From the IMG/VR virus record IMGVR_UViG_2859805564_000008: DNA of 53,551 bases; one strand, written 5' to 3'. The stretch is from a virus. Taxonomy: Duplodnaviria; Heunggongvirae; Uroviricota; Caudoviricetes. The notes beneath the pieces were generated by a model that saw only the letters and a program-made list of their open reading frames with translations, was not told the origin of the DNA and made no database searches. Position 1 is the first letter of the stretch, and each line of letters starts with the position of its first letter. Positions 1 through 51,825 of the stretch are shown here, one piece after another. Position numbers and translations under genes: made by a program.

Positions 1-1254
1 ATGCTGGAACAAATGGGCATTGCTGCGAAGCAAGCCTCGTATAAATTAGCGCAACTCTCCAGCCGCGAAAAAAATCGCGTGCTGGAAAAAATCGCCGATG
101 AACTGGAAGCACAAAGCGAAATCATCCTCAACGCTAACGCCCAGGATGTTGCTGACGCGCGAGCCAATGGCCTTAGCGAAGCGATGCTTGACCGTCTGGC
201 ACTGACGCCCGCACGGCTGAAAGGCATTGCCGACGATGTACGTCAGGTGTGCAACCTCGCCGATCCGGTGGGGCAGGTAATCGATGGCGGCGTACTGGAC
301 AGCGGCCTGCGTCTTGAGCGTCGTCGCGTACCGCTGGGGGTTATTGGCGTGATTTATGAAGCGCGCCCGAACGTGACGGTTGATGTCGCTTCGCTGTGCC
401 TGAAAACCGGTAATGCGGTGATCCTGCGCGGTGGCAAAGAAACGTGTCGCACTAACGCTGCAACGGTGGCGGTGATTCAGGACGCCCTGAAATCCTGCGG
501 CTTACCGGCGGGTGCCGTGCAGGCGATTGATAATCCTGACCGTGCGCTGGTCAGTGAAATGCTGCGTATGGATAAATACATCGACATGCTGATCCCGCGT
601 GGTGGCGCTGGTTTGCATAAACTGTGCCGTGAACAGTCGACAATCCCGGTGATCACAGGTGGTATAGGCGTATGCCATATTTACGTTGATGAAAGTGTAG
701 AGATCGCTGAAGCATTAAAAGTGATCGTCAACGCGAAAACTCAGCGTCCGAGCACATGTAATACGGTTGAAACGTTGCTGGTGAATAAAAACATCGCCGA
801 TAGCTTCCTGCCCGCATTAAGCAAACAAATGGCGGAAAGCGGCGTGACATTACACGCAGATGCAGCTGCACTGGCGCAGTTGCAGGCAGGCCCTGCGAAG
901 GTGGTTGCTGTTAAAGCCGAAGAGTATGACGATGAGTTTCTGTCATTAGATTTGAACGTCAAAATCGTCAGCGATCTTGACGATGCCATCGCCCATATTC
1001 GTGAACACGGCACACAACACTCCGATGCGATCCTGACCCGCGATATGCGCAACGCCCAGCGTTTTGTTAACGAAGTGGATTCGTCCGCTGTTTACGTTAA
1101 CGCCTCTACGCGTTTTACCGACGGCGGCCAGTTTGGTCTGGGTGCGGAAGTGGCGGTAAGCACACAAAAACTCCACGCGCGTGGCCCAATGGGGCTGGAA
1201 GCACTGACCACTTACAAGTGGATCGGCATTGGTGATTACACCATTCGTGCGTAA
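1..1254 (+). CDS. proA: gamma-glutamyl phosphate reductase
   Basis: 417-aa ORF starting at nt 1; translation recognised as full-length enterobacterial ProA. Confidence 0.95.
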
Positions 1255-32951: not shown

Positions 32952-35900
32952 ATGGGTAAAGGCAGCAGTAAGGGGCATACCCCGCGCGAAGCGAAGGACA
33001 ACCTGAAATCCACGCAGTTGCTGAGTGTGATTGATGCCATCAGTGAAGGGCCGATTGAAGGTCCGGTGGATGGATTAAAAAGCGTGCTGCTGAACAGTAC
33101 GCCGGTGCTGGACACTGAGGGGAATACCAACATCTCCGGTGTCACGGTGGTGTTCCGGGCAGGTGAGCAGGAGCAGACTCCGCCGGAGGGATTTGAATCC
33201 TCCGGCTCCGAGACGGTGCTGGGTACGGAAGTGAAATATGACACGCCGATCACCCGGACCATCACGTCTGCAAATATCGACCGTCTGCGCTTTACCTTCG
33301 GTGTGCAGGCACTGGTGGAAACCACCTCAAAGGGGGACAGGAATCCGTCGGAAGTCCGCCTGCTGGTTCAGATACAACGTAACGGTGGCTGGGTGACAGA
33401 AAAAGACATCACCATTAAGGGCAAAACCACTTCACAGTATCTGGCCTCGGTGGTGGTGGATAACCTGCCGCCGCGCCCGTTTAATATCCGGATGCGCAGG
33501 ATGACGCCGGACAGCACCACAGACCAGCTGCAGAACAAAACGCTCTGGTCGTCATACACCGAAATTATCGATGTGAAACAGTGCTACCCGAACACGGCAC
33601 TGGTCGGCGTGCAGGTGGACTCGGAGCAGTTCGGCAGCCAGCAGGTGAGCCGTAATTATCATCTGCGCGGGCGCATTCTGCAGGTGCCGTCGAACTATAA
33701 CCCGCAGACGCGGCAATACAGCGGTATCTGGGACGGAACGTTTAAGCCAGCATACAGCAACAACATGGCCTGGTGTCTGTGGGATATGCTGACCCATCCG
33801 CGCTACGGCATGGGGAAACGTCTTGGTGCGGCAGATGTGGATAAATGGGCGCTGTATGTCATCGGCCAGTACTGCGACCAGTCGGTGCCGGACGGTTTTG
33901 GCGGCACGGAGCCGCGCATCACCTGTAATGCCTGGCTGACCACGCAGCGTAAGGCGTGGGATGTGCTCAGTGATTTCTGCTCGGCGATGCGCTGTATGCC
34001 GGTATGGAACGGGCAGACGCTGACGTTCGTGCAGGACCGACCATCAGATAAGGTGTGGACCTATAACCGCAGTAATGTGGTGATGCCGGATGATGGCGCG
34101 CCGTTCCGCTACAGCTTCAGCGCCCTGAAGGACCGCCATAATGCCGTTGAGGTGAACTGGATTGACCCGAACAACGGCTGGGAGACGGCGACAGAGCTTG
34201 TTGAAGATACGCAGGCCATTGCCCGTTACGGTCGTAACGTCACGAAGATGGATGCCTTTGGCTGTACCAGCCGGGGGCAGGCGCACCGCGCCGGGCTGTG
34301 GCTGATTAAAACAGAACTGCTGGAAACGCAGACCGTGGATTTCAGCGTCGGCGCAGAAGGGCTTCGCCATGTACCGGGCGATGTCATTGAAATCTGCGAT
34401 GATGACTATGCCGGTATCAGCACCGGCGGGCGCGTGCTGGCGGTAAACAGCCAGACCCGGACGCTGACGCTCGACCGTGAAATCACGCTGCCATCCTCCG
34501 GTACCACGCTGATAAGCCTGGTTGACGGAAGTGGCAATCCGGTCAGCGTGGAGGTTCAGTCCGTCACCGACGGCGTGAAGGTGAAAGTGAGCCGTGTTCC
34601 TGACGGTGTTGCTGAATACAGCGTGTGGGGGCTGAAGCTGCCGACGCTGCGCCAGCGCCTGTTCCGCTGCGTGAGTATCCGTGAGAACGACGGCGGCACG
34701 TATGCCATCACCGCCGTGCAGCATGTACCGGAAAAAGAAGCCATCGTGGATAACGGGGCGCACTTTGACGGTGACCAGAGCGCCACGGTGAATGGTGTCA
34801 CGCCGCCAGCGGTGCAGCACCTGACTGCCGAAGTCACCGCAGACAGCGGGGAATATCAGGTGCTGGCGCGCTGGGACACGCCGAAGGTGGTGAAGGGCGT
34901 GAGCTTCCTGCTCCGTCTGACCGTAACAGCGGATGACGGCAGTGAGTGGCTGGTCAGCACGGCCCGGACGACGGAAACCACTTACCGCTTCACACAACTG
35001 GCGCTGGGAAATTACAGGCTGACAGTCCGGGCGGTAAATGCATGGGGACAGCAGGGCGATCCGGCATCGGTATTGTTCCGGATCGCCGCACCGGCAGCGC
35101 CGTCGCGGATTGAGCTGACGCCGGGCTATTTTCAGATAACCGCCACGCCGCATCTTGCGGTTTATGATCCGACGGTACAGTTTGAGTTCTGGTTCTCGGA
35201 AAAGCGGATTGCGGATATCAGGCAGGTTGAAACCACAGCCCGCTATCTTGGTACGGCGCTGTACTGGATAGCCGCCAGTATCAATATCAAACCGGGCCAT
35301 GATTATTACTTTTATATCCGCAGTGTGAACACCGTAGGCAAATCGGCATTTGTGGAGGCCGTCGGTCGGGCGAGCGATGATGCATCCGGCTATCTGGATT
35401 TTTTCAAAGGCGAGATAGGGAAAACCCATCTGGCTCAGGAGCTGTGGACGCAGATTGATAACGGTCAGCTTGCGCCTGACCTGGCTGAAATCAGGACGTC
35501 CATTACGGATGTCAGCAATGAAATCACGCAGACCGTCAATAAGAAACTGGAAGACCAGAGTGCGGCAATTCAGCAGATACAGAAGGTTCAGGTTGATACA
35601 AATAATAACCTGAACAGCATGTGGGCTGTGAAGCTGCAGCAGATGCAGGACGGACGCCTTTATATCGCGGGTATTGGTGCCGGTATTGAGAACACCCCTG
35701 ACGGCATGCAGAGTCAGGTGCTGCTGGCGGCGGACAGGATTGCGATGGTTAATCCTGCGAATGGCAACACAAAACCGATGTTTGTTGGTCAGGGCGATCA
35801 GATATTCATGAACGACGTGTTCCTGAAACGCCTGACGGCCCCCACCATTACCAGCGGTGGAAATCCACCGGCATTTTCCCTGACACCGGACGGGCGACTG

Positions 35901-36431
35901 ACGGCGAAAAATGCGGATATCAGTGGCAGTGTGAATGCGAACGCCGGGACGCTCAACAATGTCACGATAAATGAAAACTGTCGGGTTCTGGGAAAACTGT
36001 CTGCGAACCAGATTGAAGGCGATCTCGTTAAAACAGTGGGCAAAGCTTTCCCCCGGGACTCCCGTGCACCGGAGCGGTGGCCATCAGGGACCATTACCGT
36101 CAGGGTTTATGACGATCAGCCGTTTGACCGGCAGATTGTTATTCCCGCGGTGGCGTTTCGTGGCGCTAAACATGAGCGGGAGAATAACGATATTTATTCG
36201 TCATGCCGCCTGATAGTGAAGAAAAACGGTGCTGAAATTTATAACCGTACCGCGCTGGATAATACGCTGGTTTATACAGGTGTTATTGATATGCCTGCTG
36301 GTCGCGGTCACATGACGCTGGAGTTTTCGGTATCAGCGTGGCTGGTAAATGACTGGTATCCCACAGCCAGTATCAGTGATTTGCTGGTTGTGGTGATGAA
36401 GAAATCCACAGCAGGTATCACGATTAGCTGA
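32952..36431 (+). CDS. tail tip / host specificity protein J
   Basis: 1159 aa, lambda J-like architecture with fibronectin-like repeats and distinct C-terminal receptor-binding region. Confidence 0.9.
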
Positions 36432-36499: not shown

Positions 36500-37099
36500 A
36501 TGCGTAAAGTTTGTGCAGCCATTTTGTCCGCAGCCATCTGTCTGGCCGTATCCGGTGCGCCTGCATGGGCGTCTGAGCATCAGTCCACGCTGAGCGCGGG
36601 GTATCTTCATGCCCGGACGAACGTTCCCGGCAGTGATGATCTGAACGGGATTAACGTGAAATACCGTTATGAGTTTACGGACACACTGGGGATGGTGACG
36701 TCGTTCAGCTATGCAGGAGACAAGAATCGCCAGATTACCCGTTACAGCGATACCCGCTGGCATGAAGATTCCGTTCGTAACCGCTGGTTCAGCGTAATGG
36801 CGGGGCCGTCTGTGCGCGTGAATGAATGGTTCAGCGCGTATGCGATGGCGGGTGTGGCTTACAGCCGTGTGTCGACTTTCTCCGGGGATTATCTCCGCGT
36901 AACTGACAACAAGGGGAAAAAGCACGATGTGCTGACCGGAAGTGATGACGGTCGCCACAGCAACACGTCTCTGGCGTGGGGAGCTGGCGTGCAGTTTAAC
37001 CCGACCGAATCCGTGGCCATTGATGTCGCTTATGAAGGCTCCGGCAGTGGTGACTGGCGCACTGACGGGTTCATCGTGGGTGTTGGTTATAAATTCTGA
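36500..37099 (+). CDS. lom: Lom-like outer membrane beta-barrel protein
   Basis: 199 aa with signal peptide and C-terminal ...GVGYKF; lambda Lom/Ail/PagC family. Confidence 0.85.
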
Positions 37100-37125: not shown

Positions 37126-37152
37126 AGCCCGCCGGTTCAGGCGGGCTTTTTT
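37126..37152 (+). terminator. intrinsic terminator after lom
   Basis: AGCCCGCC-GGTTCAG-GCGGGCT followed by TTTTTT. Confidence 0.6.
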
Positions 37153-37157
37153 GTGGG

Positions 37158-40100
37158 GTGAATATGGCAGTAAAAATTTCAGGTGTACTGAAAGACGGCA
37201 CAGGAAAACCGGTACAGAACTGCACAATCCAGCTGAAAGCAAAACGTAACAGTACCACGGTGGTGGTGAACACGCTGGCATCTGAAAATCCGGATGAAGC
37301 CGGGCGTTACAGTATGGACGTTGAGTACGGTCAGTACAGCGTTATTCTGTTGGTGGAAGGATTCCCGCCGTCACATGCCGGGACCATCACAGTGTATGAA
37401 GATTCCCGACCCGGTACGCTGAATGATTTTCTCGGTGCCATGACGGAGGATGATGCCCGTCCGGAGGCACTGCGCCGTTTTGAGCTGATGGTGGAAGAGG
37501 TGGCGCGTAACGCGTCCGTGGTGGCACAGAACACGGCAGCCGCGAAGAAGTCAGCCAGTGATGCCAGCACATCAGCCCGTGAGGCGGCAACCCATGCGAC
37601 TGATGCTGCAGGCTCAGCACGCGCAGCCAGCACGTCAGCCGGACAGGCCGCGTCGTCGGCTCAGTCAGCGACTTCCAGCGCAGGAACGGCATCAACAAAG
37701 GCCACTGAAGCATCAAAAAGTGCTGCCGCTGCAGAGTCCTCAAAAAGCGCGGCAGCTACCAGTGCCAGTGCCGCGAAAACGTCAGAAACGAATGCGGCAG
37801 CGTCACAACAATCAGCAGCCACTTCTGCATCCACCGCGACCACGAAAGCGTCAGAAGCTGCCACCTCAGCCCGGGATGCGGCGGCTTCAAAAGAGGCGGC
37901 AAAATCATCAGAAACGAACGCATCCTCGAGCGCCAGTAGCGCAGCTTCCTCGGCAACGGCGGCAGCAAATTCTGCGAAGGCGGCCAAAACGTCCGAGACG
38001 AACGCCAGGTCTTCTGAAACGGCAGCGGGACAGAGTGCCTCAGCTGCGGCAGGCTCAAAAACAGCGGCTGCATCATCTGCCAGTGCCGCGTCAACAAGTG
38101 CCGGGCAGGCCTCAGCCAGTGCCACCGCTGCCGGAAAGTCGGCAGAAAGCGCCGCATCATCCGCTTCAACAGCCACAACGAAGGCTGGCGAAGCCACTGA
38201 GCAGGCCAGCGCAGCAGCGAGGTCAGCTTCCGCAGCGAAGACATCCGAAACGAACGCGAAAGCGTCGGAAACCCGTGCAGAATCCTCAAAAACGGCTGCT
38301 GCATCGTCCGCCAGTTCGGCGGCGTCATCGGCATCATCTGCGTCTGCTTCAAAAGATGAGGCGAGCAGACAGGCATCAGCAGCGAAAGGCAGCGCCACGA
38401 CGGCATCCACGAAGGCGACAGAGGCAGCTGGCAGTGCGACGGCGGCAGCTCAGAGCAAAAGTACGGCGGAATCCGCGGCAACGCGCGCTGAGACAGCGGC
38501 AAAACGGGCAGAGGATATTGCATCCGCCGTGGCGCTTGAGGATGCGAGCACGACGAAAAAGGGGATAGTACAGCTCAGCAGTGCGACCAACAGCACTTCC
38601 GAGTCACTGGCGGCAACGCCAAAAGCCGTTAAGGCCGCGTATGACCTGGCTAACGGGAAATACACCGCACAGGATGCAACGACAGCACAGAAAGGGATAA
38701 TCCAGCTAAGCAGCGCGACCAACAGCACGTCTGAAACGCTGGCGGCAACGCCAAAGGCAGTAAAATCAGCCTATGACAATGCAGAGAAACGTCTGCAGAA
38801 AGACCAGAACGGCGCTGATATACCCGATAAGGGACGCTTCCTGAACAACATTAACGCGGTCAGTAAAACAGACTTTGCTGATAAGCGTGGTATGCGTTAT
38901 GTGCGGGTTAACGCTCCTGCAGGTGCAACATCTGGAAAATATTACCCTGTTGTTGTTATGCGTTCTGCTGGCTCAGTAAGCGAACTGGCATCAAGGGTCA
39001 TTATCACCACGGCAACGCGAACCGCAGGCGATCCGATGAATAACTGCGAGTTTAACGGATTTGTTATGCCTGGTGGCTGGACTGACAGGGGGCGTTATGC
39101 TTATGGAATGTTCTGGCAATATCAAAACAATGAACGAGCCATCCACTCAATAATGATGAGTAATAAGGGCGATGATTTGCGCTCTGTGTTCTATGTTGAT
39201 GGCGCTGCTTTCCCTGTTTTTGCGTTTATCGAAGATGGCCTGTCAATATCCGCACCTGGTGCTGATCTCGTTGTTAATGATACGACCTATAAGTTTGGGG
39301 CAACAAATCCGGCGACTGAATGTATTGCGGCGGACGTTATCCTTGATTTTAAGAGTGGGCGTGGTTTTTATGAGTCTCATTCGTTAATCGTTAACGATAA
39401 CTTGTCGTGCAAAAAACTTTTTGCCACAGACGAAATTGTAGCGCGTGGTGGTAATCAGATTCGAATGATAGGTGGGGAGTATGGTGCATTATGGCGTAAT
39501 GATGGCGCTAAAACTTACCTGCTGCTTACCAATCAAGGTGATGTTTATGGTGGCTGGAATACATTAAGACCGTTTGCTATTGATAACGCAACCGGCGAAC
39601 TGGTTATTGGAACCAAACTGTCCGCAAGTCTGAACGGTAATGCATTAACAGCAACAAAGCTGCAAACGCCAAGACTGGTTTCTGGTGTTGAGTTTGATGG
39701 TTCCAAAGATATTACTTTAACCGCCGCGCATGTGGCTGCTTTTGCCAGAAGGGCAACGGATACATATGCCGATGCGGATGGTGGCGTTCCCTGGAATGCC
39801 GAATCAGGCGCTTATAATGTCACCCGCTCTGGCGACAGCTATATTCTGGTTAACTTCTATACCGGAGTCGGAAGTTGCCGGACATTGCAGATGAAGGCGC
39901 ATTACAGAAATGGTGGTCTGTTCTACCGTTCTTCAAGAGACGGTTATGGTTTTGAAGAAGACTGGGCAGAAGTTTATACCTCGAAAAATCTTCCACCAGA
40001 AAGCTACCCAGTAGGCGCACCAATCCCGTGGCCATCAGATACCGTTCCGTCTGGCTATGCCCTGATGCAGGGGCAGGCTTTTGACAAATCTGCTTACCCG

Positions 40101-40709
40101 AAACTCGCAGCCGCTTATCCGTCAGGCGTGATCCCTGATATGCGTGGCTGGACGATTAAGGGCAAACCTGCCAGTGGTCGTGCCGTATTGTCTCAGGAAC
40201 AGGACGGCATTAAATCGCACACCCACAGCGCCAGCGCATCCAGTACGGATTTGGGGACGAAAACCACATCGTCGTTTGATTACGGCACTAAATCCACGAA
40301 TAACACCGGGGCGCATACGCACAGTCTGAGTGGCTCTACGGGGTCTGCCGGTGCTCATACTCATGGTAATGGTATTCGTTGGCCAGGAGGCGGCGGTTCT
40401 GCGTTAGCATTTTATGATGGCGGTGGGTTCACTTATGTCAAGGATTCACAGTATCAAGTAAGCCCGGGGACTTCTTCCAGTAGATCGTATTATCAACGTA
40501 TTCAGACACAGTCAGCAGGTGCTCATACCCACTCGCTGTCTGGTACTGCAGCAAGTTCTGGCGCACATGCACATACTGTAGGTATTGGTGCGCATACGCA
40601 CTCGGTTGCGATTGGCTCACATGGACACACCATCACCGTTAACGCTGCTGGTAACGCGGAAAACACCGTCAAAAACATCGCATTTAACTATATTGTGAGG
40701 CTTGCATAA
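37158..40709 (+). CDS. side tail fiber protein (Stf-like)
   Basis: 1183 aa; Stf-like N-terminus, ~330-aa Ala/Ser/Thr-rich repeat region, C-terminal His-containing repeats (GAHTHSLSG). Confidence 0.8.
37540..38560. repeat. GC-rich low-complexity coding repeat within the tail fiber gene
   Basis: Repeated ...AAKTSETNA.../...SASSAAS... units; produces long spurious ORFs in the other frames and on the opposite strand. Confidence 0.8.
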
Positions 40710-41293
40710 TGGCATTCAGAATGAGTGAACAAGCACGGACCATAAAAATTTATAATCTGCTGGCCGGAACTAATGAATTTATTGGTGAAGGTGATGCATA
40801 TATTCCGCCTCATACAGGTCTGCCAGCAAACAGTACCGATATTGCACCACCAGATATTCCTGCTGGCTTTGTGGCTGTTTTCAACAGTGATGAGGCATCG
40901 TGGCATCTCGTTGAAGACCATCGGGGTAAAACGGTTTATGACGTAGCGTCAGGGGACGAGTTATTTATTTCTGAACTCGGTCCGTTACCGGAAAATGTTA
41001 CCTGGTTATCGCCGGAAGGGGAGTTTCAGAAGTGGAACGGCACAGCCTGGGTGAAAGATGCAGAAGCAGAAAAACTGTTCCGGATCCGGGAGGCGGAAGA
41101 AACAAAAAACAGCCTGATGCAGGTAGCCAGCGAGCATATTGCGCCGCTTCAGGATGCTGCAGATCTGGAAATTGCAACGGAGGAAGAAACCTCATTGCTG
41201 GAAGCCTGGAAAAAGTATCGGGTGTTGCTGAACCGTGTTGATACATCAACTGCACCGGATATTGAGTGGCCAGAAGAACCAGACACCGTGTAA
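40709..41293 (+). CDS. tail fiber assembly protein (Tfa-like)
   Basis: 194 aa, overlaps the stf stop; N-terminus [17 protein letters not shown] typical of Tfa chaperones. Confidence 0.8.
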
Positions 41294-41362: not shown

Positions 41363-42181
<819 letters not shown>

Positions 42182-42542
42182 TCATTGCAAGGGCTCACAA
42201 CCAGTAGTGTTGAGAAAACCATCGGAGAAATGAGGCTAAGCCTTTGAATTTACATAGTACAAAAAAGATACTTTTCCTCATAATGTGAGCTAATTTTATG
42301 TTTCGTTTGATGATTGGACCGGTCTCGAAAACCGTAGACACATAGTATGCGTTAATTTATGAACAAACTACTTGTCTGCTGTTTTTCTGTCATTAGTCGT
42401 ATATAGAATGATTCTCTATGCCTAACAAAGCATCACCAGTGCTAGATTACGTTGTAGTCACTGTTTAAATATCCAGATAAAACATTTCCTTCTGGGTTGA
42501 ATGAGTGATAAAGTTTCACCCATTAGACCCCTTGGAGGAATT

Positions 42543-43976
42543 ATGTCTGAATTTGAAGTGTTGGCACAGCATCTGCTGAAGGAAGCCGAGGCGGAAGAAA
42601 AGTTGCGACAGGAAAATGATAAAAAGCTTATCGAGAAAGTGCTGGAAATCTATGATCAGAAGTATGTGGCTGAATTACTGAGAAAAGTCGGAAAAAATGA
42701 GTGGAGCCGTGAAACCATTAACCGCTGGATTAATGGCAAGTGTTTACCAAAATCGTTGACTTCAGTAGAAGAGTCTCTTCTGCGTAAGATGCTACCAGAA
42801 CCACCTGCAAACCATCCGGAATATGCTTTCCGCTTCATTGACTTATTTGCTGGAATTGGAGGGATACGGAAAGGTTTTGAGGCCATTGGAGGCCAGTGTG
42901 TTTTTACCAGTGAATGGAATAAAGATGCTGTGCGTACATACAAGGCCAACTGGTTTAACGATGAACAGGTGCATAAATTCAATCTCGATATTCGGGAAGT
43001 CACGCTGAGTGATAAAACCGATGTATTGGAAACGGATGCTTATGCATATATTGATGAGCATGTGCCGGATCATGATGTGCTTCTTGCGGGGTTCCCGTGC
43101 CAGCCATTTAGCCTTGCTGGTGTTAGTAAGAAAAACTCACTTGGTCGTGCGCATGGTTTTGAATGTGAAGCACAAGGAACACTTTTTTTTGACGTGGCAC
43201 GTATTATACGAGCAAAAAAACCGGCAATTTTTGTGCTGGAAAATGTCAAAAATCTGAAGAGCCATGATAAGGGTAAAACTTTCAAAGTCATTATGGAGAC
43301 CCTTGACGAGCTGGGCTACGAAGTTGCCGATGCTGCAGAAATGGGAAAAAACGATCCAAAGATTATCGATGGGAAGCATTTTTTGCCTCAGCATCGTGAA
43401 CGCATTGTTCTGGTCGGATTTAGACGAGATCTGAATATTCACAAGGGGTTTACCTTGCGTGATATCAGTCGTTTTTATCCGGAACACCGCCCATCATTTG
43501 GTGAATTGCTGGAGCCTGTAGTCGACAGTAAATATATACTTACGCCAAAACTATGGGAGTACCTTTATAACTACGCCAAAAAGCATGCAGCCAAGGGGAA
43601 TGGTTTTGGCTTTGGGTTGGTCAATCCTGAGAATAAGGAAAGCATTGCACGCACACTTTCTGCCAGATATCACAAAGACGGATCAGAAATTCTTATTGAT
43701 CGTGGTTGGGATATGGCAACGGGAGAGGCTGACTTTATGAATGAGAGTAATCAGGCTCGTCGACCACGCAGGCTGACTCCCCGAGAGTGCGCACGCCTTA
43801 TGGGATTTGAAAAACCTGGAGGGAAACCATTCCGTATTCCGGTTTCAGATACTCAGTCATATCGGCAGTTCGGTAACTCAGTTGTGGTGCCAGTATTTGA
43901 AGCTGTTGCCAGACTTCTGGAACCCTATATCCTCAAAGCTGTTTCTGCTGATGCTGGTAAGACTGGGCAGCCTTGA
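42543..43976 (+). CDS. ecoRIIM: C5-cytosine DNA methyltransferase, Dcm/M.EcoRII type (CCWGG)
   Basis: [12 protein letters not shown] (motif I), GFPCQPFS (motif IV), ENV, QFGNSV; close to M.EcoRII/Dcm throughout; GGAGG RBS before MSEFEV; track ORF starts at 42501. Confidence 0.95.
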
Positions 43977-44010
43977 GAACATCTCCCGGCCTTTTAAGCC
44001 GGGAGTCAGC

Positions 44011-45225
44011 CTATGATAGTTCAGCGTAAAGCTCTATCAGCTCAGTAATGAATGCTCCGAGCGTTATTAATTCTTCTCTAACTGCTTCTGGGTATTTTTT
44101 ATGTAAAGTTGATGGTACAACGAGTCTGACACCCGCATCTTTCATTTCTCGGTATTGTGCTGAAGAAACACCTTCTTGCAGTGTAAATAAATGTACCTGA
44201 TGGATTTTATCTGCTTCATTCAGTATCTGACGCCAGCGATCTTTGCAGGTGGTCTTTACTGCCAGCATACGTAAGTTTTCTACAGGAAATTCAACGTTAT
44301 GATATGCCTCTGCTGAAGGAAACAGGAAATCTGGTTTTTTATTACCTTCAGTTACTGCCTGAGTGGAGAAATGCCGTAGTCCGTGCTCGATAAAAAGCTT
44401 CTCTAGGTGAAGTTCAAGTGATTTGCCTGCCCTTGATTTACGTCGATTACTGACAGAGTTGGCTAATGCAATAAACTCATCTACAGAATCGAATCCTTTC
44501 TTAATAATATCAAGAACATGTAATTCCTCGACGAGTAGAAAAATATCATACTCGACACGCCGACGGTCAATCAGTTGCTCATCTGGATCCTTGGAGTTTT
44601 TAGCATAATGGCCAGCAGCATATTGAATAATTTCGTTTCCAGAAGGAAAACGCTTCTTCCAGTCTTCAGGAATAACATATTTATGATTTACTGGAGTTTG
44701 CTGAAGAGACAATCCGCCCAAAATTTGTCCGGCAGGGCCGGAAATTAGGGTTCCAGGTATGATTTCGCCAATAGCAGACTCGATGATATCCTCTTCATCG
44801 GGATTGACGCAGACCCATATATCTACCTCGGAACAGTCAGTGTTCTGTTCGTTTAACCTGAAAGCAAGAATTGTGAGGGCTCCTGTATTTTCAGGGTTCT
44901 GTAATGGACTTCCTCTCCCCCAGCGCGTAATTCTTTTTTCGTTTCGGGTCTTACCAAAATAACGGTTGTTGTAATAAATTGCGCGTGCTTGGGTATCAGG
45001 GCAATCATGGGATGATACATGCGCAGTAAGGAAGACTGAAGGGTTCAGTTCGCGAGTATGATTGATAGATGGAAAAAGCTTTTCAACGATATTTGAGGGG
45101 ATATAAAGTCCGACCTGATGGCCACCTGTTGCGCCTGTGTCGTTTGCAGAAAGGCGTTTGATGTAGATAAAGTAATTCCCGCTTGCGATATCAAGCAGCC
45201 AGTTATGAAAAACCGACATATACAT
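44011..45225 (-). CDS. ecoRIIR: type IIE restriction endonuclease, EcoRII type
   Basis: 404-aa ORF (MYMSVFHNWLLD...) highly similar to my recollection of R.EcoRII, convergent with the methylase gene; start may be the internal Met at 45219. Confidence 0.9.
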   Translation of the reverse strand: MYMSVFHNWLLDIASGNYFIYIKRLSANDTGATGGHQVGLYIPSNIVEKLFPSINHTRELNPSVFLTAHVSSHDCPDTQARAIYYNNRYFGKTRNEKRITRWGRGSPLQNPENTGALTILAFRLNEQNTDCSEVDIWVCVNPDEEDIIESAIGEIIPGTLISGPAGQILGGLSLQQTPVNHKYVIPEDWKKRFPSGNEIIQYAAGHYAKNSKDPDEQLIDRRRVEYDIFLLVEELHVLDIIKKGFDSVDEFIALANSVSNRRKSRAGKSLELHLEKLFIEHGLRHFSTQAVTEGNKKPDFLFPSAEAYHNVEFPVENLRMLAVKTTCKDRWRQILNEADKIHQVHLFTLQEGVSSAQYREMKDAGVRLVVPSTLHKKYPEAVREELITLGAFITELIELYAELS

Positions 45226-48689: not shown

Positions 48690-49508
48690 TTAAGCAGCCA
48701 TCTGATGATATTTTTCCCTGAAGGCTGCCGGGGAGATATTCCCCAGACGAGAGTGACGACGCTGACGATTGTAGAAAATCTCAATGTATTCCCGTATTAC
48801 TGAGATGGCTTCATCCCGGTTATTAAAACGATAGTGGCTCAGGCTCTCATTTTTCAGCGTTCCCCAGAAGCTTTCCATCGGAGCGTTGTCGTAACAGTTA
48901 CCTTTACGCGACATTGATGTTTTCAGACCAGACTGCTCCTGTATGACCCGGTAATCGTATGCGCAGTACTGTGAACCTCGATCAGAGTGGTGGATTAGCC
49001 CGGCAGGTGGGCGCTGGCTCCTGAGCGCCATAAACAGGGCTTTACCTGTCAGCTCTTTTGTCATGCGCTCTCCCATGGCGTAGCCGACAATTTCGCACGT
49101 ATAAACATCTTTGATGCCAGCGAGGTACAACCATCCCTCCTGTGTGGCAACATACGTCAGGTCCGCCACCCAGACCTGATTTGGTGCTGTAGGAGCGAAC
49201 GTCTGGTTCAGCAGATTTGGCGCAACTGGCAGATTGTGGTTCGAGTTCGTAGTCGCTCTGAACTTGCGTTTCTGCTTACAGCGTAGCCTTAGCTCCTTAC
49301 GAAGACGTGCCAGTCGGTCACGACCAACAATGATGCCATTCTCTGCCAGCTCCGTCTGGAGCCGCCGGGTTCCATATGTTTCGCGAGTGCGGATATGTGC
49401 CACCTTAATCTCCAGTTTTAGCCGCTCATCACTTTGTTTTCTGTCTGAGGGTTCATGCTGTACCCAGTTGTAATAACCGCTCCTGGATACACCAAATACC
49501 TGACACAT
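48690..49508 (-). CDS. IS3-family transposase OrfB (DDE catalytic domain)
   Basis: 272 aa with integrase-core motifs (VWVADLTY...HSDRGSQY...NAPMESF). Confidence 0.85.
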   Translation of the reverse strand: MCQVFGVSRSGYYNWVQHEPSDRKQSDERLKLEIKVAHIRTRETYGTRRLQTELAENGIIVGRDRLARLRKELRLRCKQKRKFRATTNSNHNLPVAPNLLNQTFAPTAPNQVWVADLTYVATQEGWLYLAGIKDVYTCEIVGYAMGERMTKELTGKALFMALRSQRPPAGLIHHSDRGSQYCAYDYRVIQEQSGLKTSMSRKGNCYDNAPMESFWGTLKNESLSHYRFNNRDEAISVIREYIEIFYNRQRRHSRLGNISPAAFREKYHQMAA

Positions 49509-50384: not shown

Positions 50385-51825
50385 CACAGTGAACTAGGGG
50401 TAGGTCATAGTGAACTACCCCCACAGAATTCTGTTACCCCTATCAAGTCTGATACCCCTATCAAAACTGATACCCGATAAGTATAAATAACACCTAAATA
50501 GCTGCGCGGAATAGTAGATCACTTTGAGGGAACTTAGCCCGGATTGTGCGATCTGATCAATCGCCAAATCAAAACAAATCACCAACCGGACTGAGCAATG
50601 CCGATCATAGCACCAATTTCCCGTGACGAACGACGCCTGATGCAGAAAGCCATCCATAAAACACACGATAAAAATTATGCCCGCAGACTGACTGCCATGC
50701 TGATGCTGCACCGGGGCGACCGTGTCAGCGACGTTGCCAGAACGCTCTGCTGCGCCCGTTCCTCTGTTGGACGCTGGATTAACTGGTTCACGCAGTCGGG
50801 TGTTGAGGGACTGAAATCATTACCTGCCGGGCGTGCCCGTCGCTGGCCGTTTGAGCATATCTGCACACTGTTACGTGAGCTGGTAAAACATTCTCCCGGC
50901 GACTTTGGCTACCAGCGTTCACGCTGGAGTACAGAACTGCTGGCAATAAAAATCAATGAGATAACCGGTTGCCAGTTAAATGCCGGAACCGTTCGCCGCT
51001 GGTTGCCGTCTGCGGGGATTGTGTGGCGAAGGGCTGCGCCAACTCTGCGTATCCGTGACCCGCATAAAGATGAAAAGATGGCAGCAATCCATAAAGCACT
51101 GGACGAATGCAGCGCAGAGCATCCGGTCTTTTATGAAGATGAAGTGGATATCCATCTTAATCCCAAAATCGGTGCGGACTGGCAACTGCGCGGACAGCAA
51201 AAACGGGTGGTCACGCCGGGACAGAATGAAAAATATTATCTGGCCGGAGCGCTGCACAGCGGGACAGGTAAAGTCAGCTGTGTGGGCGGCAACAGCAAAA
51301 GTTCGGCGCTGTTCATCAGCCTGCTGAAGCGGCTTAAAGCGACATACCGTCGGGCGAAAACCATCACGCTGATCGTGGACAACTACATTATCCACAAAAG
51401 CCGGGAAACACAGAGCTGGCTGAAGGAGAACCCGAAGTTCAGGGTCATTTATCAGCCGGTTTACTCGCCATGGGTGAATCATGTTGAACGGCTATGGCAG
51501 GCACTTCACGACACAATAACGCGTAATCATCAGTGCAGCTCAATGTGGCAACTGTTGAAAAAAGTTCGCCATTTTATGGAAACCGTCAGCCCATTCCCCG
51601 GAGGCAAACATGGGCTGGCAAAAGTGTAGCGGTATTAAGCGCAGCTATTTAGGAAATGATTTCCGATCTATTTAGGAAGTAACCTAGGAAGTGGTTTCCT
51701 ACCTACTTAGGAAATGACTTCCACCAATACTATAATTAAATACTATAAATAATATTCTTTATACTATATAGGTCACTGTGAACTAGGGGGGTAGTTCACT
51801 ATGAGCTAGGGGGTAGGTCACTGTG
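50385..51825 (+). mobile_element. IS630-family insertion sequence (putative; ends approximate)
   Basis: Transposase flanked by ~40-bp imperfect inverted repeats beginning CACAGTGA; right end abuts IS1. Confidence 0.55.
50598..51629 (+). CDS. IS630-family transposase
   Basis: 343 aa, N-terminal HTH, C-terminal DDE-type region. Confidence 0.85.
   Translation: MPIIAPISRDERRLMQKAIHKTHDKNYARRLTAMLMLHRGDRVSDVARTLCCARSSVGRWINWFTQSGVEGLKSLPAGRARRWPFEHICTLLRELVKHSPGDFGYQRSRWSTELLAIKINEITGCQLNAGTVRRWLPSAGIVWRRAAPTLRIRDPHKDEKMAAIHKALDECSAEHPVFYEDEVDIHLNPKIGADWQLRGQQKRVVTPGQNEKYYLAGALHSGTGKVSCVGGNSKSSALFISLLKRLKATYRRAKTITLIVDNYIIHKSRETQSWLKENPKFRVIYQPVYSPWVNHVERLWQALHDTITRNHQCSSMWQLLKKVRHFMETVSPFPGGKHGLAKV

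Follow-up and report, generated by a model that had tools for sequence, protein, structure and literature searches.

Sequence analysis of an StfR-type side tail fibre with a long Ala/Ser/Thr heptad stalk

The stf gene and its neighbours

The DNA analysed here (the window) is a stretch of 53,551 nucleotides from a virus of the Caudoviricetes (IMG/VR record IMGVR_UViG_2859805564_000008). An open reading frame on its plus strand (37158..40709; 1183 aa when read from a GTG codon) had been described in an earlier note, made from the sequence alone, as an unusually long side tail fibre of the Stf type. Both the reading frame and its assignment to the lambda-type side tail fibres were confirmed: the product matched profile positions 1-134 of 134 in Pfam PF08400 (E=1.7e-71), and the gene lies downstream of J, between lom and tfa. 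The order J (32952-36431), Lom (36500-37099), Stf and Tfa is likewise annotated in E. coli, lambda and K-12. The tfa ATG and the stf TAA stop codon share one nucleotide (TAATG), an arrangement of translational coupling. The features of the locus are shown in Table 1.

With regard to the start codon, MAVKISG is the beginning of the protein in the closest E. coli copy as annotated in RefSeq, in lambda Stf and in the deposited lambda Stf chain 9e7m. This sequence maps to the ATG at 37164 and gives a protein of 1181 aa. On the basis of this comparison, the ATG is probably the true start of stf, and the GTG at 37158, which adds two residues, is probably not.

Table 1 Features identified at the stf locus (residues counted from the ATG)
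Feature	Position	Strand	Basis or details
Intrinsic-terminator-like hairpin and T-run, after lom and directly upstream of stf	37126..37152	+	8-bp stem with 7 GC pairs, then TTTTT
stf, encoding an StfR-type side tail fibre (1181 aa, ATG start)	37164..40709	+	Homology and start comparison
N-terminal tail-attachment (collar) domain, aa 1-94	37164..37445	+	Lambda Stf 9e7m residues 1-94, E=2.4e-51; PF08400
Heptad-repeat Ala/Ser/Thr stalk, aa ~102-458, ~51 heptads	37467..38537	+	Residue autocorrelation, heptad register, AF2 helix, DNA repeat spacing
Two tandem 44-aa Phage_fiber_2 units, equivalent of the hinge region	38547..38810 (38547-38678, 38679-38810)	+	Pfam PF03406, E=4e-37, 2 stretches
Modules of the distal shaft without counterpart in lambda Stf	38811..40013	+	Pfam, PDB matches, lambda alignment
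T4 gp34-like trimerisation domain in distal shaft	39282-39581	+	Pfam PF21446, E=3.6e-27; PDB 5nxf/4uxe (gp34)
Mu fibre S-like segment in distal shaft	within 38811..40013	+	PDB 8ju3/5yvq (Mu S)
Phage tail collar domain	40014..40157	+	Pfam PF07484, E=1.6e-11; inside 2XGF alignment
gp37-type needle with seven HxH motifs	40218..40706	+	HxH scan; all seven aligned with T4 gp37 HxH
Variable ('head') insert of the tip, separating HxH 3 from HxH 4, aa 1070-1115	40371..40508	+	Poorly aligned, longer segment vs 2XGF; cassette comparison
tfa, tail fibre assembly chaperone	40709..41293	+	Pfam PF02413, E=5.3e-45; phrog_105

The 1181-aa protein was 100% identical to an NCBI entry named 'prophage tail fiber N-terminal domain-containing protein [Shigella sonnei]', and its exact sequence is a RefSeq entry. 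The identical protein was found on 55 independent contigs, one of them a 4.9-Mb chromosome, and homologues covering at least 80% of stf were present in 1231 of 5426 complete E. coli genomes. StfR of the Rac prophage of K-12 (b1372, 1120 aa) was near-identical over its full length, with the same N-terminal domain, a 340-aa stalk from anchor to anchor, the distal shaft and seven HxH motifs; the protein examined here differs from it in having an extra (second) 44-aa Phage_fiber_2 unit and, between HxH 3 and 4, a different cassette that is 17 aa longer. The description of the fibre as unusually long could not be maintained, since near-identical proteins are commonly found with lengths of 1137, 1176, 1181 and 1220 aa. 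By these sequence matches, Stf is an ordinary and already catalogued allele of the K-12 Rac StfR-type prophage fibre, real and not new; as such, belonging to a well-studied family, it carries little weight as a discovery.

An invertible or shufflon-type fibre switch was also considered and rejected on the basis of the neighbouring gene, as tfa is followed here by a gene for a GIY-YIG protein and not for a recombinase. In K-12 Rac, pinR adjoins tfaR.

Heptad periodicity and predicted structure of the stalk

The Ala/Ser/Thr-rich stalk proposed from the sequence was found to be real and about 350 aa long: residues 111-470 consisted of 36.7% Ala, 23.3% Ser and 11.9% Thr, and windows with an A+S+T fraction of at least 0.6 spanned aa 115-466. 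It had been placed in the middle third of the protein, but in fact extends from the second ninth to ~39% of its length. The coding DNA is GC-rich, as had been stated (GC 0.618 versus 0.497 in the rest of the gene), because of the GCN, TCN and ACN codons. Long alternative-frame open reading frames inside this DNA were rejected as by-products of stop-free runs of Ala, Ser and Thr codons.

Autocorrelation of the stalk residues was high at all multiples of 7 up to lag 56 (z = 7.9-11.2) and near or below zero at other lags. The heptads, with the consensus S-A-(S/T)-x-A-x-(T/S) and Ala residues 3 and 4 positions apart, share one register that is unbroken over the whole stalk. Single-sequence AF2 modelling of aa 1-511 gave beta strands in the N-terminal domain and helix over aa 99-466, with pLDDT values mostly between 60 and 86; the model was used for secondary structure only, as the monomer folded the stalk back on itself. 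The stalk is therefore predicted to be a trimeric alpha-helical coiled-coil rod of ~53 nm. We know of no experimental structure of any Stf stalk. A PDB search with the stalk alone returned a single match, the L-shaped fibre protein pb1 of T5 (8hqz), which was not accepted as a homologue because the match was weak and composition-biased (E=0.027). On the other hand, by sequence the segment is the counterpart of the proximal coiled-coil trimer reported for Stf of Ur-lambda, in which cryo-ET revealed a straight proximal rod that was modelled as a coiled coil, AlphaFold3 segments being fitted to the cryo-ET data (PMC12617516).

It should be considered whether the segment might instead be a disordered, flexible tether or a non-helical (for example, beta-structured) shaft. 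Its high Ser/Thr content, the weakness of an all-Ala core and the only moderate pLDDT values would agree with such a state, and the Ala-14 mutant of Lpp is largely unfolded in solution (PMC4137666). However, a strict 7-residue periodicity over 51 heptads is not something that disorder would conserve; the register is also kept through changes of stalk length in the family, the AF2 helices are continuous, and the rod of Ur-lambda is straight. We thus regard a disordered or non-helical stalk as very unlikely and retain the coiled coil. A parallel is offered by Lpp-56, which forms alanine-zipper trimers, and by its Ala-rich mutants: these also have Ala-core heptads, which can associate into coiled coils of three parallel strands (PMC4137666). 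The likeness is one of pattern only, as there is no sequence homology and Lpp has few Ala layers, compared with ~51 heptads and a near-exclusive Ala/Ser core here. Because all-alanine cores have been reported to be destabilising in Lpp mutants (PMC4137666), the stability of the rod is something that we infer rather than observe.

Stalk length among relatives

The earlier note had suggested that the stalk DNA is a likely hotspot for recombination or length variation. Read in this way, it would be a contingency-type locus in which slippage or unequal recombination alters the repeat number among close prophages. In the 1077 nt scanned, the longest exact direct repeat was 13 nt, close to the value expected from codon shuffles (mean 12.1, maximum 17), and TRF reported no array in the stalk DNA, its only hit being of 19 nt. 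The weak direct repeats that could be detected (61-83% identity) were mostly spaced by multiples of 21 nt. The stalk repeat is thus a heptad at the protein level, far beyond chance, and not a DNA repeat.

Comparison of related prophages gave a similar picture. The distance between the stalk anchors was 340 aa in all of the 120 closest homologue clusters (91-100% identity), without any variation. In the wider family, lengths of 87, 116, 123, 132, 137, 228, 235 and 340 aa were observed; five of the seven other classes were in heptad register with 340 aa (P ~0.001), the exceptions being 87 and 132 aa. Across this wider family, stalk length therefore changes mostly by whole heptads. The several lengths of distant members and the 21-nt spacing of the weak repeats are what a hotspot might leave behind, but the lack of an array, the shortness of the exact repeats and the uniform stalk of close relatives, K-12 StfR included, all argue against it. 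Moreover, the polymorphism seen at short range lies elsewhere, in the tip cassette and in the 44-aa unit, whose copy number ranges from 1 to 3 among close relatives and whose tandem arrangement is also visible as a DNA direct repeat (D4) with a spacing of 132 nt. Hence, the hotspot reading appears improbable.

Even less credit can be given to the idea that the repeat was collapsed or expanded during sequencing or assembly, which the earlier note had named as the result that would overturn it. Nothing was found in its favour apart from the general risk that goes with low-complexity, GC-rich DNA. The same protein occurs on the 55 contigs mentioned above, StfR of K-12 MG1655 has the same stalk, neither the reading frame nor the heptad register is interrupted, and there are no long exact repeats to be mis-assembled. 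An artefact was thus effectively refuted, and we assign it a negligible probability. Being non-repetitive, the stalk DNA is no product of mis-assembly, and it is not a hotspot for slippage either.

Fibre tip, related fibres and a working model

[quoted passage not shown] In total, seven HxH motifs were found, at aa 1019, 1051, 1065, 1121, 1135, 1144 and 1153 (1021, 1053, 1067, 1123, 1137, 1146 and 1155 when counted from the GTG), and the 14 His residues present in the C-terminal 243 aa all belong to them. Three of the motifs precede the head insert and four follow it. The C-terminal 236 residues (aa 948-1183 when counted from the GTG) matched the tip of T4 gp37 (2XGF, Bartual et al. 2010) with E=3e-81 and with 7/7 HxH motifs aligned. 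Collar, needle and head align over this region, and a C-terminal motif of 11 residues is conserved. In both phages a chaperone gene lies directly downstream, gp38 in T4 versus a lambda Tfa-type gene (PF02413) here. The rest of Stf is unrelated to gp37, its head insert is ~20 aa longer and could not be aligned, and gp37 is the distal subunit of a myovirus long tail fibre whereas Stf is a siphovirus side fibre. One report, which cites Bartual 2010, states that T4 gp37 binds seven iron ions via its HxH motifs (PMC11705849).

These motifs had been interpreted as a probable metal-binding, receptor-recognition tip. The first half of this view is consistent with the alignment, by which the HxH motifs are of the gp37 metal-binding type and belong to the structural needle. 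The second half needs to be revised, as receptor contact would probably be made by the insert between HxH 3 and 4 and not by the extreme C-terminus. Among proteins that are otherwise 91-100% identical, this site holds three unrelated cassettes, and the DNA of the cassette found here was present in 720 of 5426 E. coli genomes. Earlier work has described receptor specificity as residing in a variable segment with conserved sequence on either side (PMC9659904). Thus, the insert is a probable receptor-contacting cassette. Structure prediction of the C-terminal region, which the earlier note had proposed as a check, gave a mean pLDDT of 39.3 for a single-sequence AF2 monomer of the last 244 aa, a model too poor to be used. 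Such a low value would be in keeping with a trimer that is intertwined, stapled by iron and dependent on a chaperone, and it is sequence homology that supports the tip structure.

The closest characterised system is Ur-lambda Stf (774 aa; 9e7m; PMC12617516). The two genes occupy the same position, and the N-terminal domain of Stf is ~95% identical to the solved lambda collar domain. They also share the sequence family of the heptad stalk, a hinge motif of 25 residues and a gp37-type HxH C-terminus accompanied by Tfa. However, the stalk of Ur-lambda falls short of the one here by exactly 105 aa (15 heptads), the shaft of ~350 aa with the gp34-like and Mu S-like modules is missing, eight HxH motifs are seen in the alignment instead of seven, and the tip insert is different. 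In Ur-lambda, the gpV/gpM junction is surrounded by a collar built from twelve copies of the N-terminal domain (PMC12617516). Each virion carries four trimeric fibres at its tail tip, and these bind OmpC and accelerate adsorption (PMC12617516).

Given these similarities, it is very probable that stf encodes the StfR-type side tail fibre of a lambda-like prophage, whose mode of action is most likely that of Ur-lambda Stf. One fibre would then consist of three chains, whose N-terminal beta domains would become part of a tail collar located directly above the tip and be followed by a short linker. The heptads, with Ala in the core and Ser/Thr outside, would form a thin and rigid trimeric 'alanine zipper', ~15 nm longer than that of lambda, which would serve as a spacer setting the reach of the fibre. 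Beyond a hinge region made of the two 44-aa units, beta-structured shaft modules like those of T4 gp34 and Mu S would lead to a collar, needle and head of the T4 gp37 type. There, the HxH motifs of the three chains would coordinate a line of iron ions and thereby staple a six-stranded needle, each chain running down the needle, through the variable head and back up. The co-translated Tfa chaperone would be needed for folding and register of the C-terminal trimer. The fibres of lambda and T4 use OmpC and/or LPS as receptors, and Stf would similarly be the first to touch an outer-membrane receptor, quickly and reversibly, with J engaging its own receptor afterwards.

A more speculative extension, which we consider rather doubtful, is that the stalk ranks among the longest natural uninterrupted Ala/Ser-zipper coiled coils (~51 heptads free of stutters and stammers), that its weak and uniform core could be zipped in register only via the Tfa-folded C-terminal trimer, and that fibre reach is tuned in whole-heptad quanta (12-48 heptads between the anchor motifs), perhaps matching the thickness of the host O-antigen or capsule. 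The heptad-quantised length classes are observed; the match to the surface layer and the Tfa-dependent folding pathway are speculation. Such quantised lengths offer a simple design rule for fibres of different reach. Finally, close StfR-type relatives have three parts in fixed form, namely collar domain, heptad rod and HxH needle, whereas the head cassette that separates HxH 3 from HxH 4 and the copy number of the 44-aa hinge unit are swappable, a division that is useful for lambda Stf chimeras in host-range retargeting (for example, PMC11338833).

Identity, start and length of the side tail fibre gene

The ORF listing gave a product of 1183 aa with a GTG start for stf, a side tail fibre gene of the StfR type. 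Its third codon is an ATG (37164) that opens the sequence MAVKISG..., and since the closest E. coli copy in RefSeq, lambda, K-12 StfR and the deposited cryo-EM chain of lambda Stf (9e7m) all use this start, the product is most likely the 1181-aa protein. A terminator-like hairpin with a T-run lies after lom, just 5' of stf, and the TAA stop of stf overlaps the ATG of tfa by 1 base, in the gene order J (1159 aa), Lom, stf and Tfa. Five Pfam domains were identified in Stf (see table), and Tfa was recognised as a lambda-type tail fibre assembly chaperone (PF02413, 5.3e-45). In PDB searches, the N-terminus matched the lambda Stf collar chain 9e7m (E=2.4e-51), and internal segments matched Mu fibre S (8ju3, 5yvq) and T4 gp34 (5nxf, 4uxe). 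The domains, gene order and PDB matches thus point to a lambda-type fibre and bear out the assignment to side tail fibres made in the earlier note; the feature is real and was rightly recognised, and its kind and exact sequence were already known. It should be noted that many NCBI records call exact or near-identical Stf proteins 'short-chain fatty acid transporter', an evident propagated misannotation.

Features of stf and its surroundings (residues of Pfam domains in GTG numbering, which is two residues more than ATG numbering)
Feature	Pfam	E value	Residues	Window position	Strand
Tyrosine integrase, near left end				1459-2622	minus
Terminator-like hairpin				37126-37147	
stf ORF				37158-40709	plus
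Prophage tail fibre N-terminal	PF08400	1.7e-71	3-136		
Phage_fiber_2 repeat, best of two stretches	PF03406	4e-37	464-504		
T4 gp34 trimerisation domain	PF21446	3.6e-27	709-808		
Tail collar domain	PF07484	1.6e-11	953-1000		
Phage_fiber repeat	PF03335	4e-05	1048-1061		
Stalk			~102-458	37467-38537	plus
ORF inside stalk DNA, 336 aa				37558-38568	plus
ORF inside stalk DNA, 249 aa				37661-38410	minus
ORF inside stalk DNA, 255 aa				37756-38523	minus
Tip cassette			1070-1115	40371-40508	
GIY-YIG (LEM-3-like) domain protein				41363-42136	minus
C5 cytosine DNA methyltransferase with DNA_meth_N domain				42501-43976	plus
EcoRII-type restriction endonuclease				44011-45225	minus
Insertion-sequence transposase				48690-49508	minus
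Insertion-sequence transposase				50598-51629	plus

The fibre had also been described as unusually long, which is not supported by its relatives. The exact 1181-aa protein is an NCBI entry under Shigella sonnei and is found on 55 contigs, one of them a 4.9-Mb chromosome. In the 120 closest homologue clusters, 1176 and 1181 aa were the prevailing lengths and 1220-aa forms occurred too. K-12 StfR (Rac prophage) has 1120 aa, and alignment revealed that the window Stf equals StfR plus one 44-aa unit and a 17-aa longer tip insert. Lambda Stf (774 aa) was the sole comparison in which the protein appeared exceptional. Lengths reached 1200 aa among the best 150 of 660 family representatives with the N-terminal domain. 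Of 5426 complete E. coli genomes, 5069 had some match to stf, and in 1231 the match extended over 80% or more of the gene. The window Stf thus stands at the long end of its family, yet belongs to a common class.

Periodicity and length of the stalk

Residues 111-470 of Stf contain 36.7% Ala, 23.3% Ser and 11.9% Thr, and the stalk DNA had a higher GC content than the remaining gene (61.8% vs 49.7%) because of its GCN, TCN and ACN codons, in agreement with the Ala/Ser/Thr-rich stalk in GC-rich DNA noticed previously. This 'low-complexity' region has a strict periodicity: autocorrelation of its residues, scored against composition-preserving shuffles, gave z = 7.9-11.2 at lags 7, 14 and so on to 56, and values around zero or negative at all others. 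When the sequence was set in rows of seven, ~51 heptads (~aa 104-460) followed one unbroken register with the consensus S-A-(S/T)-x-A-x-(T/S), in which, among 49 rows, Ala occupied position 5 in 47 and position 2 in 35, and Ser stood first in 37. Small residues at 3- and 4-residue spacing characterise alpha-helical coiled coils whose core consists of alanine and serine. AF2 modelling of the single sequence predicted aa 99-466 to be helical (pLDDT mostly 60-86), with the lone chain folding back on itself. In the Ur-lambda study, the homologous lambda residues 102-393 make up the proximal section of the side fibre and were modelled as a trimeric coiled coil, beyond which come a hinge and a distal section resembling gp37 (PMC12617516). 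Lpp-56 provides known examples of parallel trimers whose cores are alanine zippers, although stability was reportedly weak for long all-Ala cores (PMC4137666). Taking 0.148 nm for each residue, we calculated for 357 residues a predicted rod of about 53 nm, ~15 nm longer than that of lambda.

Three long ORFs were also present in other frames or on the opposite strand of the stalk DNA; they were rejected as genes, the simplest explanation being stop-free by-products of GCN/TCN/ACN runs. In addition, the N-terminal Ala/Ser/Glu-rich part of the L-shaped tail fibre of phage T5 (PDB 8hqz chain d) resembled the stalk weakly and with a bias from composition (E=0.027), and may represent an analogous coiled coil, likewise rich in Ala, from the side fibre of another siphovirus.

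The stalk had been suggested as a hotspot of recombination or length variation. TRF found nothing in its DNA besides one 19-nt match, the longest exact direct repeat in 1077 nt was 13 nt (codon-shuffled controls: mean 12.1, maximum 17), and synonymous codons were well mixed. Direct-repeat families were weak (61-83% identical), with spacings mostly in multiples of 21 nt, and reflect heptad structure and no recent duplication. With two conserved motifs as anchors ([10 protein letters not shown] at one side and [13 protein letters not shown] at the other), the stalk measured 340 aa in every one of the 120 closest homologue clusters (91-100% identity), as it did in K-12 StfR. With no DNA repeats above codon-shuffle expectation and such constancy, the hotspot proposal was not supported. 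An assembly artefact was excluded as well, considering that the same sequence occurs in many independent assemblies and lacks long repeats to mis-assemble. Constant among close relatives, the stalk has several lengths in the wider family (87, 116, 123, 132, 137, 228, 235 and 340 aa between anchors). Of the seven other classes, five lay a whole number of heptads away from 340 aa (binomial P about 0.001), and the lambda stalk is shorter by exactly 15 heptads. This pattern argues for length change over long time scales that is constrained to keep the coiled-coil register, rather than for a rapidly varying repeat. The unbroken 51-heptad register and the heptad-quantised length classes are small additions of this study.

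C-terminal tip, variable segments and proposed function

The His repeats noticed at the C-terminus were confirmed as seven HxH motifs within the last 165 residues, which include all 14 His of the C-terminal 243 aa. The last 236 aa matched the T4 gp37 receptor-binding tip 2XGF (E=3e-81), with 7/7 motifs paired with a T4 HxH and poor alignment only in the insert between motifs 3 and 4. [quoted passage not shown] 2010), and the receptor-specificity segment is located in the head domain, between conserved flanks (PMC9659904). Since the T4 motifs bind iron and those of Stf align with them, the previous reading as a probable metal-binding receptor-recognition tip was essentially right, with one correction. 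By homology, the His repeats would be structural staples of the needle, the variable insert between HxH 3 and 4 is the likely receptor contact, and the conserved extreme C-terminus would run back up the needle. AF2 modelling of the C-terminal 244 aa as a monomer gave a pLDDT of 39, so the gp37-like assignment rests on sequence homology.

Close relatives varied in two places. One was how many copies they had of a tandem unit of 44 aa (132 nt) 3' of the stalk, containing KGI(V/I)[11 protein letters not shown](S/T)LAATPKAVK: one copy in lambda, K-12 StfR and a 1137-aa E. coli form, two in the window Stf and the 1176-aa form, and three in the 1220-aa form. The other was the HxH 3-4 segment, where at least three unrelated cassettes (48-53 aa) occurred in otherwise near-identical proteins. 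Of the 5426 complete E. coli genomes, 720 contained the window cassette at ≥95% DNA identity, and just two records of the phage collection did. A further small addition is that short-term variation maps to the 44-aa unit and this head cassette. For T-even phages, Tetart, Krisch and colleagues reportedly described conserved 'His boxes' that flank adhesin segments, with duplication or exchange of the segments between them, and the cassette pattern fits this idea.

By analogy, the window Stf most likely acts as Ur-lambda Stf does. Trimeric fibres would hang from the collar at the tail tip and make the first, reversible touch on an outer-membrane receptor, a contact that would speed adsorption ahead of J engaging its own receptor (PMC12617516, PMC11338833). 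Lambda and T4 both use OmpC as receptor, either alone or together with LPS. Tfa would be needed for folding of the C-terminal trimer, which, once folded, might also fix the register of the repetitive stalk.

Neighbouring cargo and mobile genes

Three cargo genes lie directly 3' of tfa (41363-45225), of which the methyltransferase and the EcoRII-type endonuclease form an EcoRII/Dcm-like restriction-modification system at the prophage end. Two insertion-sequence transposases of the rve and DDE_3 families are located to the right of this region, and a tyrosine integrase lies near the left end of the window.
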